Shown piece after piece: positions 9,684 to 15,788 of a stretch of DNA of 40,638 nucleotides. The first letter of the stretch is position 1. The number at the start of each line of letters is the position of its first letter. The DNA is from a virus (taxonomy: Duplodnaviria; Heunggongvirae; Uroviricota; Caudoviricetes). The notes under the pieces were generated by a model. It was not told the origin of the DNA. It saw only the letters and a list, made by a program, of their open reading frames with translations, and did no database searches. The stretch is from IMG/VR virus record IMGVR_UViG_2778261641_000011, one strand, 5' to 3'. A program made the translations under genes and the position numbers.

Positions 9684-11008
9684 TGCACTGGCACCTTCAG
9701 AGGGATCACCGGCACAAAGCCGGGATGCGTAATGGCATTACGCCGGATAATGTCCGCGTCACGCGCCGCGTTATCAAACCAGGTCGCCGCCAGCACCAGC
9801 GCGGGTAAAACCTCATCCGGTGTGCGCTGAATGATCCGTGCAGACTGTTCAAGGCGCGTGTTGATATCCGCATTCAGATCTGCTTTCACCCGGCGCAGCG
9901 CCAGAAACAGCGCATCGCTGGTTGTACGGGACAACTCCTTATCAATTGCCGTATTCAGTGTGTCGCGAATGTCAGTCAGTTCTTCCCACGTCGGCAGGTC
10001 AACCGTGTTTTTCACCGCCGGTGCATTGTTCAGTGCCGGATGCGTGACGGAAGGCCAGCCAGTGCTCTGCGCGGGTGTTGTTGCCTGCCCCACTGCGGAA
10101 TTCTGCATCACCGCGGAAGTTGTTGGCGCAGGCAATCGGGTGACGGCATACGCCGCTTCGCTGATTGCGGTCGTACGAAGGGTGCTGGCAACCACGTTAC
10201 GCTGCTGCGTCGCCGTGGCGGTGGTTTTACTGTCCGTTTTCCAGACGCCGCGCGGTTGCAGATCGCTGCCGAGGCTGACACCGGAAAGCGTTTTGATCAT
10301 GGTGACCAGGTCGCTGGCGTTACCATAAAGGCGTTTCCCGGTACGCCACATTTTCTGCACCTGCTCAACGAAATTTTTGCCTGACGATGGCGGCGGCAGA
10401 AGTACCGAGATATCCCCCTGCAACAGCCTGGCGGCATCCGATACGGCAGAATCCACCACTTTCATCGCATCAGAAACATACCCCAGCATTATGCTGGCAT
10501 TACCGATAACGTCGTTCTGCACGAAATCCGCCACACCATCGATACTGAAACCGCTGAAGCTGTCACTGATGCAGTCATCCAGTGCAGAACAGGATGACAT
10601 CAGCGTCTGCGCCGTCGCCGCACCTGATGTGGGGTAAGAGATTTCTCCTGCTTCGACAAACTTCAGGTCAAAGCGGACAATACGCCCTTCACTTTTCGAT
10701 GTGCTGACCCGAACTTCCCCGTCAACACAGACTTTCAGCTCACCATATGTCGGGTGGACAAGCGTGCCGGGACCGGGTTTATTCAGCGCTTCAATCAGGC
10801 GATCGCGCTGGTCAAAGCAGTCATCTCCCACCACATAAGCTGTGATGGACGGGCGGAAAGTGACTTTTCCCAGATCTTCGGTATAGGGCTTGTCGCGGTT
10901 CGGATATTCGTGTGTTTCCACACGGCGACCGGTTCCCGCACTTTCTTCTTCAACCTTAAACGGTACGCCGCGAAATGACGCATCCTGAAGCCTGTTTTTC
11001 CACGTCAT
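9680..11008 (-). CDS. DNA circulation-like tail protein (Mu gp43 / N-like)
   Basis: 442 aa; immediately downstream of tape measure in the Mu order; overlaps the next gene. Confidence 0.65.
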   Translation of the reverse strand: MTWKNRLQDASFRGVPFKVEEESAGTGRRVETHEYPNRDKPYTEDLGKVTFRPSITAYVVGDDCFDQRDRLIEALNKPGPGTLVHPTYGELKVCVDGEVRVSTSKSEGRIVRFDLKFVEAGEISYPTSGAATAQTLMSSCSALDDCISDSFSGFSIDGVADFVQNDVIGNASIMLGYVSDAMKVVDSAVSDAARLLQGDISVLLPPPSSGKNFVEQVQKMWRTGKRLYGNASDLVTMIKTLSGVSLGSDLQPRGVWKTDSKTTATATQQRNVVASTLRTTAISEAAYAVTRLPAPTTSAVMQNSAVGQATTPAQSTGWPSVTHPALNNAPAVKNTVDLPTWEELTDIRDTLNTAIDKELSRTTSDALFLALRRVKADLNADINTRLEQSARIIQRTPDEVLPALVLAATWFDNAARDADIIRRNAITHPGFVPVIPLKVPVQ

Positions 11009-11029
11009 ATAAACTCCGGATACAAAAAA

Positions 11030-11094
11030 CCCGCCAAATCTGCTTTGTCAGTTATTTACATCGCAGAAGATGTGGCGGGAACCTAATATTTTTA
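11030..11094 (-). terminator. Intrinsic terminator downstream of the moron gene
   Basis: On the minus strand, hairpin cccgccacatcttctgc ... gcagatttggcggg followed by TTTTTTG. Confidence 0.5.
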
Positions 11095-11098
11095 ATTA

Positions 11099-11593
11099 CT
11101 ATCTGAGTTGAACATCAATGGAATAAATATTACCACTCTTTATAAATTTAGAATCTGTCCTTTCATCAAAAGATTCAAATGACTGTACCTTTAAAAACTT
11201 TTTCATTTTATTTTCAAAAATACTTTCATTAACACCAGTTAAATACTTGAACGCTCTACCAGCAAGGACCTCATTACTTAAATCCATTGTGTTTTTATTG
11301 TCTTTGAAAAACCAAACAATAACCTTTTGTGGGCATGATGGATTATAAACAGATATATAAAACTGCGGCTCATATTTTTCATCAGCGTCATCACTAAGCA
11401 TTTCTTCAGAAGATAATTCTCTTCTGAATTCATATTGCCGCTTAGTTATTCCTTCATCCTTTATTATCTCTTGCTTAACTGGTGCAATACCTATAGAAGA
11501 GATTAATTCTGACTCATTAAAGCTGAACTTACACTCTTCCGCAGCCAAGTTAAAAGATAAAAGTGCAGATATAAAAAAAACAAAGATACGCAT
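11099..11593 (-). CDS. Moron: secreted or periplasmic protein of unknown function
   Basis: AT-rich island inside a GC-rich tail operon. Likely start is the internal Met (MRIFVFFISALLSFNLA-AEE, signal peptide with an AXA-type site). Promoter-like TATAAT upstream and a terminator downstream. Confidence 0.6.
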   Translation of the reverse strand: MRIFVFFISALLSFNLAAEECKFSFNESELISSIGIAPVKQEIIKDEGITKRQYEFRRELSSEEMLSDDADEKYEPQFYISVYNPSCPQKVIVWFFKDNKNTMDLSNEVLAGRAFKYLTGVNESIFENKMKKFLKVQSFESFDERTDSKFIKSGNIYSIDVQLR

Positions 11594-11692
11594 AATCATC
11601 CCTTCAATCATTTGTAAGGAATGATTATATTAACTACTTAAAGCTGAAAACCCAAATTATGCCAGACAAAAACACATTAATCATTTTGTACA

Positions 11693-13525
11693 CTACCTGA
11701 ACCGCGTATAGCCAACATCATGGCTGACATCAAAACCGCTGGATCGCGTTTCCATAACCCGCATACCCGGAGGCGAATTCACAAAAGAGACCTTGATCTC
11801 ACCATCAACTTTTGGCACAGAAGCTTTGTTAATCATGAAGGGATTCGAGCCTGTGGCATCGGAGGCGTTGTTTGACTGAGCCGGATCCACCGCCGGATAA
11901 GGTGTGTATCCCCGCGCCGGTATTCCCGTCCCATAAGCATCATAAGCACCCGCGCCCCACTGCGCAGAGTTAATGGCATCGACCGTGTCACCGGAACTGT
12001 CGGTAAACCACTCAATAATTGGCTTCAGCTTGTCCCACATATCCTGAAACCACTTAACAACCGGTCCCCAGTTATTGATCACCATCCCCAGCGGCGACCA
12101 GGCAAAAACCTTCTTCAGAAGTTCCCAACCTGCCTCAAAATAAGGACCAATGGTTTCCCAGAGCTTCTTGAAATAAGGTCCGACAACATCCCAGTTAGTG
12201 ATAATTAATCCCGCAGCCAGAGCAATCGCCGTCGCAATCATGCCAATCGGCGTCATCGACATAATCCTGCTGACAATACTGATGGCACTGCCCACGCCCA
12301 TCAATCCCAGTTTCAGAATCGCAAGACCGGCAGCAAGCCCGACGACGCCGCGAATAACCCGGGGATTTTCATCCGCAAACTTCGTGAATTTCTCCCCCAA
12401 CTCCCCCAGCCATTGTGTGATATTTTTAGCGTCACCAGAAAATGCGCCGCCAATAGCCGCAAGGCCGTTAGTTGCGGTCCCTGTCATTGCCTCCCACAGG
12501 TTGGACAGCGTACCAAGCTGTGCCTGAACACGTTTATTCAGGCTGGCCTGTTTATTCATCTTCTGCTGGATCTGATCGTAGCCATCCTTTCCTTTATCGA
12601 TTAGTGCATTGACCACCTGAAGGGTTTCGGCATCATCACCAAATATTGCCTTAAGTACACCTGTTCGCTTAACGTCGGTCAGTTTTCGCAGCTTTGCCAG
12701 TTGCCTGAACATGTTATCAAGACCGCCAAAACTCCCTTTGCCGTCAGTAAAATCGAGCTGTACCCCGAGTCTCTGGCGGGCCATGACTTTATTGACGTCC
12801 CTGATTTTCTTAACGCTTAATCCGGACTGGATAACTTTTCGCAGGGCATTACCTGCCGACTCCCCGTTCATCCCCATCTGATCCATCATGACACTGATGG
12901 GGGCAAGACTCTGTGCAGCCTGAAGACCGTCCTTATTCACCATCTTCAGAACAGAGCTGGTTTTAGTGAAGAATGACAGCATGTTGGTGTCGTCAACGCC
13001 CAGATAAAACGCCTTCTGAATTGTGTCGAACAGCCCCATCATGTCTTCTGAGGCCGTTCCGGTAGCATCCTGCATCTTTGCGGCAAACTCGGCAGCCGCT
13101 TCCGGTGTTTTTTTCAGTTGTACCGCAAGATAAGCTGTCGCTTTACCCACACCACCCAGAATGTTTTCTGCCGGGATCCCCTGACGCACCAGCATCTGCA
13201 TCATGTTCTGGAAATCAGCCGTTGTACCGGGTAGCTGGTTACCCAGGCCAATAGCCAGTTTATTGATGTCCTGAAAGCTCTTTCCAACCTCGCCGTTCGC
13301 ATCCATCATGGCGACTTTCAGCCCGGTGGCGGCGTTTTCCTGATCGGCATAAGATTTCAGGGAAAGCGTCAGACCCGCTGCCAGTCCGCCACCAAGCGCC
13401 AGCCCACCCTGTGACGCTTCTTCCGCCTGGCGTTTAAATCCCCGGATTTTCTTTTGCATTTTCGACAGCGCGGGAGAAAGCCTGTCGACACCGGTGATCA
13501 ACGCCTTAAGCTCAAATTCAGCCAT
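11693..13525 (-). CDS. Tail tape measure protein
   Basis: 610 aa, Ala/Gly-rich coiled-coil-like with hydrophobic segments; lies between the chaperone and baseplate genes. Confidence 0.85.
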   Translation of the reverse strand: MAEFELKALITGVDRLSPALSKMQKKIRGFKRQAEEASQGGLALGGGLAAGLTLSLKSYADQENAATGLKVAMMDANGEVGKSFQDINKLAIGLGNQLPGTTADFQNMMQMLVRQGIPAENILGGVGKATAYLAVQLKKTPEAAAEFAAKMQDATGTASEDMMGLFDTIQKAFYLGVDDTNMLSFFTKTSSVLKMVNKDGLQAAQSLAPISVMMDQMGMNGESAGNALRKVIQSGLSVKKIRDVNKVMARQRLGVQLDFTDGKGSFGGLDNMFRQLAKLRKLTDVKRTGVLKAIFGDDAETLQVVNALIDKGKDGYDQIQQKMNKQASLNKRVQAQLGTLSNLWEAMTGTATNGLAAIGGAFSGDAKNITQWLGELGEKFTKFADENPRVIRGVVGLAAGLAILKLGLMGVGSAISIVSRIMSMTPIGMIATAIALAAGLIITNWDVVGPYFKKLWETIGPYFEAGWELLKKVFAWSPLGMVINNWGPVVKWFQDMWDKLKPIIEWFTDSSGDTVDAINSAQWGAGAYDAYGTGIPARGYTPYPAVDPAQSNNASDATGSNPFMINKASVPKVDGEIKVSFVNSPPGMRVMETRSSGFDVSHDVGYTRFR

Positions 13526-13936
13526 GTGTGCGTTTCTCCTGCTCTATCCTGTTTGCCTGACTGACCAGCAAGGGAATTTCACTGATCGGCATACTCAGCA
13601 ATTCGAAGGGATTAATGCGCCAGTAGCTGGCGCAGTCAAAGAAGCGATCAGTGAGGTATTCAGCCGTCAGGCCTGGAGGAAAAAACCAGCCACAAGCCAC
13701 GCCGCTGCATTCAGGTCTGCCGGAGACATCTGGTCGACAGAGCTTTGCGGCACTTTCGCCAGCCGCACAATGTATTTCGACACCACATGCGCCAGAAGTC
13801 TGACGGACTCATCCTGATTCATCTGGTAGGGATACCCCAGCTCGCGGACATCCTTCCCGGTGGGCTCATCAAACTCCAGTACGGAGAGTGTCTCGCCATG
13901 AGCAGTAATCGGTTTCTTTAACTCAAGCTCTTTCAT
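13518..13936 (-). CDS. Tail assembly chaperone with a programmed -1 frameshift extension (G/GT-like)
   Basis: Zero-frame ORF 13667-13936 ends ...LVAGFFLQA. Slippery heptamer T-TTT-TTC (plus-strand 13679-13685) lets the -1 frame continue as PPGLTAEYL... to 13518. Confidence 0.6.
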
Positions 13937-14292
13937 TACTGGTAATCCCCTTCTTCACCGTGGAACTCAAGATCAACCGTGCCTTCTTCGGCATTATGGT
14001 TCGCTTCGCCGTGCAGCCAGGCAGACGACAGTACATAGACCTGACCGTTCGCCAGCTCGGCAGTGATAGTCATCTCATCAGACGAGGTGATTTTGTTCAC
14101 CGGAAAATTCTTCGGCACCTTGAAAGTCCCTTTGACATAAGGCGCACGGTGAGTTTCCTTGCGGTCCACTGAACCGTCCAGGCCGATGATGTCATCATTG
14201 ACCGTCCTGTTCATGGGCACCTCAATGCCGCCGGTCAGCGATAGCTGTTGACCGTCAATTTTGAAATAACAGGTTCCCCCGATACGGGCCAT
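13936..14292 (-). CDS. Tail tube protein
   Basis: 118 aa immediately downstream of the sheath gene; ATGA overlap. Confidence 0.7.
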   Translation of the reverse strand: MARIGGTCYFKIDGQQLSLTGGIEVPMNRTVNDDIIGLDGSVDRKETHRAPYVKGTFKVPKNFPVNKITSSDEMTITAELANGQVYVLSSAWLHGEANHNAEEGTVDLEFHGEEGDYQ

Positions 14293-15788
14293 TATGCAGA
14301 CTCCTCTGAATACTGAAGACGGAACTGGTTAACCACGGCAAAGACACGCAGCTGGTTAACATAGTCAGGCGGGAACAGCGTGTTCAGGCGGTTCGGATCG
14401 CTGGCATCACGCTCCACAACCAGGTACTGCTTAAACAGTTCGTAGTTTTCCACGATCCCCGCACGCTCAAGCTGACGGTAGGTTGCCAGCAGTTCCCCTT
14501 TGATCACCGCCGGGGTGACAATCGCCTGACCGGAACCAAAGCGGGTACCGTCGCTGGCAAGCTTGTGACGCCCGTACTTACTGGTAATGACGGATTTCAG
14601 TTTGCGCAGCACATACGCGCTGGTATGCAGCGTCTCGCTGTCGAGGTAGCTGTTATCCGCAACACCGTAAGCGTTTTTCCTGTACGTGGTGACATCACGC
14701 TGAATGCGCAGTACCCCGCTTTCGACATACGCCGTTGCCACACCATGAGACAGCAGGGTCTGTTGTTCGGTCATCGTGAACCGTTTCCCCTTCGGCGCAG
14801 GCAGCATACCCACCAGCTCACCGGTCTGCGTGGGACGTGCCGGATCGTTGCGGATAAACACCGCTGCGCGGGCGGTACGGCTTGCCGCCAGCTCGTCGGC
14901 AGGCGTCTGGGTGTCTTTTTCGTACCCCGCCAGGGTAATGTGCTGCTGGTTAAACTGGTCACCTGCGGTCACCAGTTCTGACAGCGTGCCGATCTTTGCC
15001 GTATACACATGACCATACAGCTGACGCGCATAGCTCCAGCGACCGCTGGTATCGTTCATCTCGGTCACCAGCGTGTTAACGGAGGCCGTGTCGTTGAACG
15101 GCAGGCCGATATAATCAAACGGCTCATCCGCCATTGCAGCCACCGCGCCGGTGAGAACCGGAGCACCCGTTCCGGCGGTACCCGTCGCCACGGCAATCTG
15201 TACGCCCGCTGGCAGCACTTCGCCCCCACCAAAGCCGTAGTAATTGAGGCTGACAGGAATTTCATTCCCGCAAAGCCCCTTATGACGTGCGGTCAGCGTG
15301 ACAACACCAGCCGAAGATGAAGCTGTAAACGGCAGGGTCGGAACGGCATTGATGGCATCTTTGATACTGCTGGCAATCGTCGCGACGTTATCGCCGTTAG
15401 TCACCGGTGCCTGCACGCGGGTACGTCCCACATACACATTCACCGTGCCGGTTTCGGTTGCTTGCCCGGTCACCGTCAGCGTAACCGTTGCCGCCGCGCC
15501 TGTGGCTTCCGGAACGGCAATCACATACAGCTCGCCAAACGGGTCAGTCTGGCGATAAGCCTCGACCATACGCGCCAGCTGACTTCCCGCACCACAAATC
15601 TGGCGTGCATAGTCTGCCGACGGCATCAGTACCAGACTGTTGGCAACAATCTCTGCACCGTTATTGGCATGACCAATCAGCAGCGATGCTCCGCTGTCCT
15701 GTGCAGTATTCGCCGCCTGATTATCCATTTCCGCATAAAACAGCGGAACCAGCGTATTCGACGGAATGGTGTTAAAGCTTATCGTCAT
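14292..15788 (-). CDS. Contractile tail sheath protein
   Basis: 498 aa; position and size match Mu gpL / P2 FI-type sheath proteins. Confidence 0.85.
   Translation of the reverse strand: MTISFNTIPSNTLVPLFYAEMDNQAANTAQDSGASLLIGHANNGAEIVANSLVLMPSADYARQICGAGSQLARMVEAYRQTDPFGELYVIAVPEATGAAATVTLTVTGQATETGTVNVYVGRTRVQAPVTNGDNVATIASSIKDAINAVPTLPFTASSSAGVVTLTARHKGLCGNEIPVSLNYYGFGGGEVLPAGVQIAVATGTAGTGAPVLTGAVAAMADEPFDYIGLPFNDTASVNTLVTEMNDTSGRWSYARQLYGHVYTAKIGTLSELVTAGDQFNQQHITLAGYEKDTQTPADELAASRTARAAVFIRNDPARPTQTGELVGMLPAPKGKRFTMTEQQTLLSHGVATAYVESGVLRIQRDVTTYRKNAYGVADNSYLDSETLHTSAYVLRKLKSVITSKYGRHKLASDGTRFGSGQAIVTPAVIKGELLATYRQLERAGIVENYELFKQYLVVERDASDPNRLNTLFPPDYVNQLRVFAVVNQFRLQYSEESA

Follow-up and report, generated by a model that had tools for sequence, protein, structure and literature searches.

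The archetype of frameshifting in phage tail assembly, the lambda gpG/gpGT pair (-1 shift at G_GGA_AAG), is said to have been described by Levin et al. in 1993, and Xu et al. (Xu, Hendrix and Duda) reportedly generalised the G/GT-type frameshift to long-tailed phages in 2004. In lambda both products are required, and the shift has an efficiency of ~3-4%; that of P2 is reported to be 2- to 3-fold higher. Systems of this type are expected to make a short and a fused product in a fixed ratio, with both absent from the virion (PMC5009743). In phage P2 the -1 shift that gives E and E+E' belongs to the FETUD tail operon, and a downstream stimulatory structure is not reported for it (PMC3091744); both the frameshift site and the E+E' join are annotated in the P2 record (NC_001895). 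For gp41 of phage Mu a -2 shift was reported (PMC5009743; PMC2628397). In E. coli, dnaX and the IS3/IS911 cassettes use an X_XXY_YYZ tandem-slippage heptamer, accompanied by an upstream Shine-Dalgarno-like element and/or a stem-loop or pseudoknot 5-9 nt downstream.

The window (the whole 40,638-nt stretch of DNA analysed, whose coordinates are used throughout, with the sequence read on the minus strand) is a prophage of the SfV/SfI/SfII type. Sequence comparison makes it very probable that programmed -1 ribosomal frameshifting, of the lambda G/GT type and more specifically that of P2 E/E+E', takes place in its tail assembly chaperone gene. This is a known kind of recoding that had been correctly called from the sequence beforehand; the SfV RefSeq record and the PGAP-annotated E. 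coli record inspected do not annotate it. The prophage segment is found at a coverage of at least 80% in 895 of 5,426 complete E. coli genomes (with matches in 1,100) and also in the Shigella serotype-converting phages SfV, SfI and SfII.

Comparison With Described Systems

The closest counterpart is P2 gpE/gpE+E'. The N-terminal parts belong to the same Pfam family (Phage_TAC_7, "E, or 41 or 14"), and the chaperone gene lies upstream of the tape measure gene in both, the gene directly before it being FII in P2 and the tail tube gene here. The P2 heptamer (TTTTTTG) is a T-run at the homologous ...V-[AG]-G-F-[FL] codons, in the same alignment column as the TTTTTTC of the window, and the shift has the -1 direction in either case. 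The products measure 91 and 142 aa in P2 and 89 and 139 aa in the window, and the fusion stop of P2 overlaps the tape measure ATG by 8 nt (E+E' 431-858, T from 851), as it does here. On the other hand, the P2 heptamer ends in G and that of the window in C, the tail module is P2-like in the former and Mu/SfV-like in the latter, and P2 is devoid of the hairpin that the SfV subgroup carries 45 nt downstream.

The lambda G/GT arrangement also consists of two overlapping ORFs between the major tail (tube) gene and the tape measure gene; however, there is no detectable sequence similarity, the slippery heptamer is another one and the lambda tail is non-contractile. With Mu the window shares a Mu-like tail module (sheath, tube, DNA-circulation and baseplate genes), a chaperone of the family Phage_TAC_7, which counts Mu gp41 among its members, and a second ORF that bridges to the tape measure gene. 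The bridging ORF of Mu uses the +1/-2 frame, whereas the open frame of the window is -1, and gp41 differs further in its length of 144 aa. The site resembles those of dnaX and IS3/IS911 in its X_XXY_YYZ heptamer and its use of E. coli ribosomes, but none of the accessory elements of those cassettes is conserved in the window family. G/GT-type features found at the locus are a shifted second ORF that reaches the tape measure start, an in-phase slip site, conservation, and coding without an initiation signal of its own.

The Chaperone Gene and Its Neighbours

The features of the locus are collected in Table 1.

Table 1. Features of the tail chaperone locus, in window coordinates.
Feature	Position	Strand	Description	Evidence
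Tail sheath protein gene	14292..15788	minus	498 aa	Pfam Phage_sheath_1, Phage_sheath_1C, Phage_sheath_domII
Tail tube protein gene	13936..14292	minus	118 aa, directly upstream of the chaperone gene	Pfam Tail_tube (PF10618), E=3e-33
Zero-frame tail assembly chaperone gene ("G"/gpE-like)	13667..13936	minus	89 aa	ORF list, Pfam Phage_TAC_7, phrog_166
Slippery heptamer	13679..13685	minus	T_TTT_TTC in X_XXY_YYZ phase, P-site TTT, A-site TTC; proposed -1 shift site	sequence, phase, conservation
-1-frame extension ("T"/E'-like)	13518..13678	minus	53 codons and stop TGA (13520-13518); proposed to be translated only after the shift	open frame, dN/dS, phrog_32181
Full fusion (GT / E+E'-like), predicted	13518..13936	minus	139 aa, join(13936..13679, 13679..13518), base 13679 read twice	reconstruction and alignment
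Conserved RNA hairpin	13616..13634	minus	8 bp, GC-rich, in the -1-frame segment, 45 nt 3' of the heptamer	folding and constraint
Shine-Dalgarno of the tape measure gene	13536..13540	minus	AGGAG, inside the -1-frame segment (...CAG GAG...)	sequence
Tail tape measure protein gene	11693..13525	minus	610 aa	ORF list; Pfam PhageMin_Tail (PF10145), E=1e-26

The sequence-only reading had proposed a tail assembly chaperone gene with a zero-frame ORF ending in ...AGFFLQA-stop. The minus-strand sequence bears this out: the ORF runs from ATG 13936 to TGA 13669-13667, its product ends in ...AAWLVAGFFLQA*, and the gene stands between those of the tube and the tape measure. The product matches Pfam PF10109 (Phage_TAC_7) with 60.3 bits against a gathering score of 25 (E=1.9e-16, profile positions 2-78 of 79) and phrog_166 ("tail protein") with E=7e-24, and PGAP labels it "phage tail assembly protein". 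In NCBIfam no model matched the chaperone, the fusion or the -1-frame (T) segment. The stop codon of the tube gene shares bases with the ATG of the chaperone gene (TAATG). The presence of a sheath gene further upstream means that the tail module is contractile (myovirus-type, Mu-like). Synonymous variation is near zero at the codons that contain the tape measure Shine-Dalgarno.

The Slippery Heptamer and Its Conservation

The T-TTT-TTC that had been named as the slip site is present in X_XXY_YYZ phase with the zero-frame codons GGT (13687-85), TTT (13684-82) and TTC (13681-79). Across the long ORFs of the window, the frequency of in-frame X_XXY_YYZ heptamers is 0.0039 per codon, and among 52 long ORFs only one other, which looks spurious, has such a heptamer inside the overlap of its zero and -1 frames. 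The heptamer and the open -1 frame together thus exceed chance expectation, the decisive evidence being comparative conservation.

A first scan of IMG/VR returned only copies with 100% identity, and pattern scans were then used to obtain diversity. TTTTTTC is at the exact position in 33 of 34 unique loci that were retrieved through an anchor independent of the slip site. All three synonymous sites of GGT TTT TTC are invariant in 11 relatives in which the neighbouring codons vary freely; for the adjoining Ala codon, all four codons are in use. TTTTTTC, TTTTTTT or TTTTTTG is found at the homologous codons of distant relatives and P2. In all the relatives named here, T_TTT_TTN at the homologous G/x-F-F codons is combined with a -1 ORF that ends at or beside the tape measure start: ST64B, SfIV and phiP27, Burkholderia BgVeeders33, Pseudomonas DVM-2008 and PG1, Bordetella PBb002 and a Haematospirillum element. 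The layout, which the sequence-only reading had described as the conserved G/GT type, is therefore kept down to an amino acid identity of 32-48% between the chaperones of these divergent relatives and that of the window, with the refinement that P2 E/E+E' and not lambda G/GT is the closest type. The slip site is not universal, since Paraburkholderia phage IPK (an UNVERIFIED record) has no T-run.

Among the A-site tetramer classes of E. coli, U_UU.Y is the second most shift-prone; when tested in a reporter in E. coli, UUUUUUC without a stimulator produced ~0.12% frameshifting vs 7.6% in the presence of an IS3 pseudoknot (PMC4066793, Table S3). Because the heptamer alone is weak in that reporter, the efficiency of the shift in the SfV-like prophage may hinge on further context.

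The Predicted Fusion and How It Would Arise

Relative to the chaperone, the frame of the ORF 13700-13518 is -1, as 13936-13700 = 236 = 3x78+2. Reading past the shift gives ...AGFF-PPGLTAEYLTDRFFDCASYWRINPFELLSMPISEIPLLVSQANRIEQEKRTHG*, that is, 53 more codons and a fusion of 139 aa and about 15.6 kDa with the junction peptide ...VAGFFPPGLTAEY...; the first 86 residues are common to the fusion and the short protein. The junction, ...WLVAGFF|PPGLTAEY..., falls in a tryptic peptide of 37 residues. It had been noted beforehand that the -1 frame remains open as far as 13518, where it adjoins the tape measure start. This holds exactly: the fusion stop TGA (13520-13518) and the tape measure ATG (13525-13523) lie in an 8-nt overlap within ATGGCTGA. 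Beyond the chaperone stop the -1 frame is open for 49 codons and the +1 frame closes after 2.

In the proposed mechanism, most ribosomes would finish the 89-aa chaperone by reading GGU UUU UUC CUC CAG GCC UGA. In a minority of ribosomes the tRNA-Phe in the P site (UUU) and that in the A site (UUC) would move one base back on U_UUU_UUC; such ribosomes would translate 53 codons in the -1 frame, stop at the UGA in the overlap with the tape measure AUG and thereby yield the 139-aa fusion. If the analogy with lambda gpG/gpGT and P2 gpE/gpE+E' holds, the N-terminal part shared by both products may coat the tape measure protein and the rare C-terminal extension may recruit the tube protein, both of them presumed partners, and a fixed low ratio between the two products would set up tail-tube polymerisation. 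For phages of the SfV type, neither protein-level evidence nor reporter or genetic data were found in the searchable literature.

The ribosomal (translational) nature of the shift is what we infer. The same 139-aa protein would result from standard translation if RNA polymerase stuttered on the T6 run and added one U to the transcript. The shift site is indeed a homopolymer, with 6 T in the window and 7 T in the ST64B/SfIV/phiP27 group, and a one-base insertion predicts the identical peptide ...GFFPPG..., so that sequence alone does not discriminate between transcriptional and ribosomal slippage and mass spectrometry would not separate them either. Transcriptional slippage is nevertheless improbable. 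In bacteria it has been reviewed for runs of 9 A or T, by comparison with which six is short (PMC5009743), and the homologous P2 case is reported as translational in a study that cites Christie et al. 2002 (PMC3091744). In addition, the run always lies in X_XXY_YYZ phase, the third base of the preceding codon being fixed as T; tandem tRNA slippage needs this phase whereas polymerase slippage needs only the run, an argument of little weight because phase and run coincide.

Coding Character of the -1-Frame Segment

A frameshift, whether ribosomal or transcriptional, would be dispensable if the -1 ORF were translated alone from GTG 13700 as a 60-aa protein. This GTG, a -1-frame codon, precedes the heptamer by 15 nt, the GenBank phage record ON470584 annotates the ORF as a separate "hypothetical protein" (an annotation judged spurious here), and in PHROGs it forms a separate family, phrog_32181, which the extension matches with E=3e-40. 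However, GTG 13700 is not preceded by a Shine-Dalgarno sequence, the matching triplet is CTG in most relatives, and in many of them no more than 21-48 nt separate the opening of the -1 frame from the heptamer. From the opening of the -1 frame to 60 nt past the heptamer, 13 of 22 relatives lack any start codon (ATG/GTG/TTG), and a Shine-Dalgarno for the -1 ORF was found in none of the 22. Judging from these sequences, independent initiation is not possible in most relatives, and an independent small gene is a very improbable reading of the locus.

The segment itself bears the marks of a protein-coding sequence. Its dN/dS is 0.04-0.25 in the -1 frame vs about 0.7-3.5 in the other two frames, differences between relatives are concentrated at third positions, and a motif, A-x-[YF]-[FW]-[RK]-[ILV]-[ND]-P, is kept across distant relatives; as judged by comparative analysis, it is protein-coding and under purifying selection in the -1 frame only. 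There is next to no probability that -1 ORF and T-run arose by accident and that the 140 nt form an untranslated spacer: long open non-coding frames are common in the window (in half of the long ORFs the -1 frame continues for at least 29 codons beyond the stop, in most cases owing to overlap with the following gene), but chance would account neither for the frame-specific purifying selection, nor for the amino acid motif kept in distant relatives, nor for a heptamer invariant at synonymous sites.

The predicted fusion could be aligned with the fusions of 12 other phages, including P2 E+E' (142 aa). Modelling with AlphaFold2 on a 13-row alignment gave a mean pLDDT of 46 and a pTM of 0.31, which is unusable, and a search of PDB sequences returned only chance matches to light-harvesting proteins. 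Neither the fusion nor the T segment of the window matched Pfam PF06528 (Phage_P2_GpE, the E' region of P2); this family matches two of 11 aligned T segments, presumably those of P2 and Bordetella PBb002. Homology between the T segments and P2 E' was not demonstrated, since hhalign of the SfV-group vs the P2-group segments gave a non-significant E=0.07, and the two groups have only the loose motif A..F.W/H..P.EL in common.

Annotation of the Predicted Fusion

As the sequence-only reading had anticipated, standard annotation misses the shift: only the 89-aa product is given in the SfV RefSeq record (NC_003444) and in the one PGAP-annotated E. coli chromosome that was inspected. With the short product alone in these records and a spurious ORF in GenBank, a tail protein of ~139 aa, essential by analogy, would be missing from them, and the ~139-aa fusion is probably missing from many protein catalogues. 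Three "fused" database proteins (P0001-P0003, 137-139 aa) were considered as natural in-frame fusions and rejected; they are singletons in which the frame switches at different, non-homologous points, and they are probably assembly indels. The biology of this locus is textbook and its practical value lies in annotation.

RNA Structure Around the Site

No conserved RNA structure was found at the canonical distance of 5-9 nt 3' of the heptamer, either in the RNAalifold consensus or in folds of the individual phages, and the window sequence contains no Shine-Dalgarno-like motif 6-17 nt 5' of it. Two longer pairings were examined and discarded. The helix CUCACUGAUCG / CGAUCAGUGA, obtained by folding the window sequence alone (z=-2.2), is lost in AH07, EPP-1 and an Erwinia relative and is without RNAalifold support. 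The pairing of UUUUUCCU with the Shine-Dalgarno region of the tape measure gene, proposed by RNAalifold, shows no covariation, and its CCUCC is not conserved. Rfam searches gave nothing near any gathering score, and no terminators or promoter-like sites were detected on the minus strand.

The sole conserved hairpin found, UGCGCCAG-CUA-CUGGCGCA (13634-13616), folds with a dG of -14.2 kcal/mol (z=-4.5). The synonymous heterozygosity of its stem codons TGC, GCC, TAC and CGC is 0-0.06 vs a regional mean of 0.34 (92 unique sequences). Pairing is kept in 99.1% of the cells of an alignment of 41 distinct sequences, the changes in the stem being G-C to A-U in 2 sequences and G-C to G-U in 3. The hairpin is thus an additional feature under strong synonymous constraint. 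It can be speculated, as a doubtful option, that an RNA element specific to this lineage is at work here, which would adjust expression in the neighbourhood of the recoding site, be it by raising the otherwise very low intrinsic efficiency of U_UUU_UUC from an unusual distance, by shielding the stretch before the tape measure start, which would be largely free of ribosomes, or by controlling that start. If so, it would represent a non-canonical accessory to tail-chaperone frameshifting. The family as a whole offers a natural series for studying what sets frameshift efficiency without a canonical stimulator, with TTTTTTC, TTTTTTT and TTTTTTG variants, one member without the run and one subgroup with the constrained distal hairpin.

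Prophage Identity and Tail Gene Context

The 1.1-kb stretch around the proposed −1 frameshift showed 98.5-99% identity to phages SfV, SfI, SfII, SKA5, and vB_EcoM-689R6 and 100% identity to an E. coli chromosomal prophage; used as a query, it matched 1,100 of 5,426 complete E. coli genomes (895 at a query coverage of at least 80%). The minus-strand genes among which it lies make up the kind of Mu-like contractile tail module that is usual in SfV-type phages.

Tail module features (window coordinates)
Feature	Coordinates	Strand	Details
Tail sheath	15788-14292	minus	498 aa
Tail tube	14292-13936	minus	Pfam Tail_tube
Small ORF with the proposed slip site	13936-13667	minus	89 aa
Tape measure protein	13525-11693	minus	Pfam PhageMin_Tail
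Low-GC insert	~11000-11750		~31-35% GC
DNA-circulation protein	11008-9680	minus	442 aa
Further ORF, presumed baseplate	9683-8604	minus	359 aa

An ORF of 170 aa (11099-11611, minus strand) lies within the low-GC island, after the tape measure gene and before the DNA-circulation gene; GC content in the surrounding tail genes is 50-60%. Its translation, judged by eye, has an apparent N-terminal hydrophobic segment; it gave no Pfam match, and its PHROG match is phrog_8976 (unknown function, E = 5e-107). It resembles an inserted moron or cargo gene within the tail operon.

Architecture of the Proposed Slip Site

The observation is confirmed and its interpretation as a frameshift is supported. The ORF end, the slippery heptamer and the −1 frame were all found where the sequence-only reading had placed them. 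The small ORF product matches Pfam Phage_TAC_7 ("tail assembly chaperone proteins E, or 41 or 14"; 60.3 bits, cutoff 25 bits) as well as phrog_166, "tail protein," and ends in ...AAWLVAGFFLQA followed by TGA. The zero-frame codons GGT (13687-85), TTT (13684-82), and TTC (13681-79) set T_TTT_TTC (13685-13679) in X_XXY_YYZ phase, and the ORF at 13700-13518 is in the −1 frame. After a −1 slip this frame reads PPGLTAEYLTDRFFDCASYWRINPFELLSMPISEIPLLVSQANRIEQEKRTHG-stop, resulting in a fusion of 139 aa. In-frame X_XXY_YYZ heptamers occur at ~0.004 per codon within the window, where only one other long ORF, probably spurious, combines a heptamer with a zero/−1 overlap; whether the site exceeds chance is decided by the comparative evidence.

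The TGA of the fusion (13520-13518) falls within ATGGCTGA and overlaps the tape measure ATG (13525) by 8 nt, with an AGGAG Shine-Dalgarno sequence at 13540-13536. The 8-nt overlap (ATGnnTGA/TAA) is seen in the SfV group, ST64B/SfIV/phiP27, and P2 (851-858), and the junction in other relatives is of the TGATG/TAATG type. It follows that a ribosome that has shifted frame always stops on the tape measure start, which would allow termination-reinitiation coupling between the fusion and the tape measure protein.

A plus-strand ORF of 107 aa (13494-13817), antisense to the chaperone and its −1 extension, exceeds the real gene in length and took its place when a naive picker chose genes by ORF length. 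Almost certainly spurious, it represents a trap for ORF callers.

Conservation of the Proposed Slip Site and Likeness to P2

The homologous region was compared in 13 phages or elements and 12 bacterial species. Among the relatives with a chaperone identity of only 32-48%, Salmonella ST64B, Shigella SfIV, E. coli phiP27, Burkholderia BgVeeders33, Pseudomonas DVM-2008 and PG1, Bordetella PBb002, and a Haematospirillum replicon each carry TTTTTTC, TTTTTTT, or TTTTTTG at conserved G/x-F-F motif codons in the same phase, together with a −1 ORF of 50-63 codons whose end coincides with or adjoins the tape measure start. The three synonymous positions of GGT TTT TTC showed no change, whereas all four codons occur for the Ala just before them, and among 34 unique IMG/VR loci, retrieved by an anchor 126 nt from the site, 33 have TTTTTTC at the exact position. 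In Paraburkholderia phage IPK (PV588664, 930-1200; 48% identical) GGC TTC TTC replaces GGT TTT TTC and the overlap of the −1 ORF with the chaperone is limited to 7 nt (...GAG GGC GCG TAA); this must be either another shift site (G_GGC?) or a sequence error, the record being flagged UNVERIFIED.

The arrangement belongs to the G/GT class that had been proposed, and within that class to the P2 E/E+E' type; the P2 shift itself is described in the literature (PMC3091744). The N-terminal family, position and direction of the shift, product sizes, and tape measure start overlap all match: the P2 record annotates a −1 frameshift site and an E+E' join, its TTTTTTG aligns to the same column as the heptamer of the window, its products have 91 and 142 aa, and its fusion stop overlaps gene T by the same 8 nt. 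Homology of the extension to P2 E', however, is not demonstrable (no PF06528 match; profile-profile E = 0.07), only a loose motif being held in common. Despite the Mu-like tail, Mu itself uses a −2 shift (PMC5009743, PMC2628397) and its bridging ORF was confirmed in the +1/−2 frame, whereas in the window the +1/−2 frame runs into a stop after 2 codons.

Translation of the −1 Segment and Proposed Mechanism

In 11 relatives with 73-92% chaperone identity, most substitutions past the chaperone stop are at third positions of the −1 frame, and dN/dS is 0.04-0.25 in this frame vs ~0.7-3.5 in the remaining frames, from which it follows that the segment is translated in the −1 frame. Tandem −1 slippage of two tRNA-Phe on U_UUU_UUC is the mechanism with the best support; it would give a minority fusion product alongside the 89-aa chaperone. 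In phage lambda the N-terminal part shared by gpG and gpGT has the tape measure protein as its partner and the extension has the tube subunit (PMC5009743); by analogy, the same pairings would hold here for the common N-terminal part and the extension.

U_UU.Y is the second most shift-prone class of A-site tetramer in E. coli, and in a reporter UUUUUUC gave only ~0.12% frameshifting alone and 7.6% with the IS3 pseudoknot (PMC4066793, Table S3). At canonical spacing no stimulator is conserved: an RNAalifold consensus of the 11 relatives contained no helix starting 5-9 nt downstream, and per-phage folds had no common structure in the 70 nt after the heptamer, where z-scores were near zero, P2 included, with the exception of the SfV subgroup and PG1 (z = −3.4). 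This agrees with reports of P2-type sites without such downstream structures (PMC3091744).

Transcriptional slippage on the T6 run would yield an identical protein, yet the bacterial cases reviewed involve runs of 9 (PMC5009743), and its likelihood is low. Independent initiation is not a conserved route, since 13 of 22 relatives lack any ATG, GTG, or TTG between the opening of the −1 ORF and 60 nt past the heptamer, none of the 22 has a Shine-Dalgarno sequence for this ORF, and the GTG at 13700 is CTG in most relatives.

Public Annotation

In three singleton "fused" chaperones of 137-139 aa from read-assembly collections the frames switch at differing, non-homologous points, which probably reflect assembly indels rather than natural in-frame fusions; among close relatives no fused version of natural origin was seen. 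The expectation that standard annotation would miss the product held for the SfV RefSeq record and one PGAP-annotated E. coli chromosome, which give the 89-aa product only and leave 13666-13526 empty. In GenBank ON470584 the −1 ORF is entered as a "hypothetical protein." The −1 segment alone matches phrog_32181, a family of unknown function that owes its existence to some annotators treating this ORF as a gene of its own, and the phrase "translational frameshift" is absent from the SfI, SfII, and SfIV genome papers. Recoding of this kind is well known, and here it lies in a prophage family that is very common, where the RefSeq and GenBank records inspected omit it; as an unannotated or new case of recoding already known, its novelty is low.

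A Constrained Distal Hairpin

The synonymous-site scan revealed a second invariant block, the −1-segment codons TGC GCC AGN TAC TGG CGC, which form an 8-bp, GC-rich hairpin, UGCGCCAG-CUA-CUGGCGCA (13634-13616, minus strand; predicted dG −14.2 kcal/mol, z = −4.5). The hairpin starts 45 nt 3' of the heptamer and lies ~90 nt before the tape measure start, in a stretch translated by frameshifted ribosomes only. It is too distant from the slip site for a canonical frameshift stimulator.

Synonymous heterozygosity of the stem codons across 92 unique SfV-subgroup sequences is 0-0.06 vs a regional mean of 0.34, with free variation at the loop codon and the codons on either side of the hairpin; none of the search patterns used to collect sequences covered this stretch. 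Across 41 distinct sequences 99.1% of the hairpin cells are paired, vs 14-50% in slid controls. Pairing-preserving changes comprise the closing G-C to A-U in two sequences and G-C to G-U in three, and the observed covariation score was reached by only 7 of 500 shuffles.

In some relatives (EPP-1, Citrobacter, and Kluyvera; L005, L019, L022, L024) a second T_TTT_TTY run, in the frame of the −1 segment (codons R-F-F), lies ~36-45 nt past the main heptamer and 3-4 nt upstream of the hairpin. In the window this position reads CGC TTC TTT, which is not slippery, and the second run is probably incidental because it is not conserved.

The hairpin matches no Rfam family. The ST64B/SfIV/phiP27, Burkholderia, Pseudomonas, and P2 groups lack it, and in the Hamiltonella relative it is degraded. 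This constrained distal hairpin is the only potentially new element.
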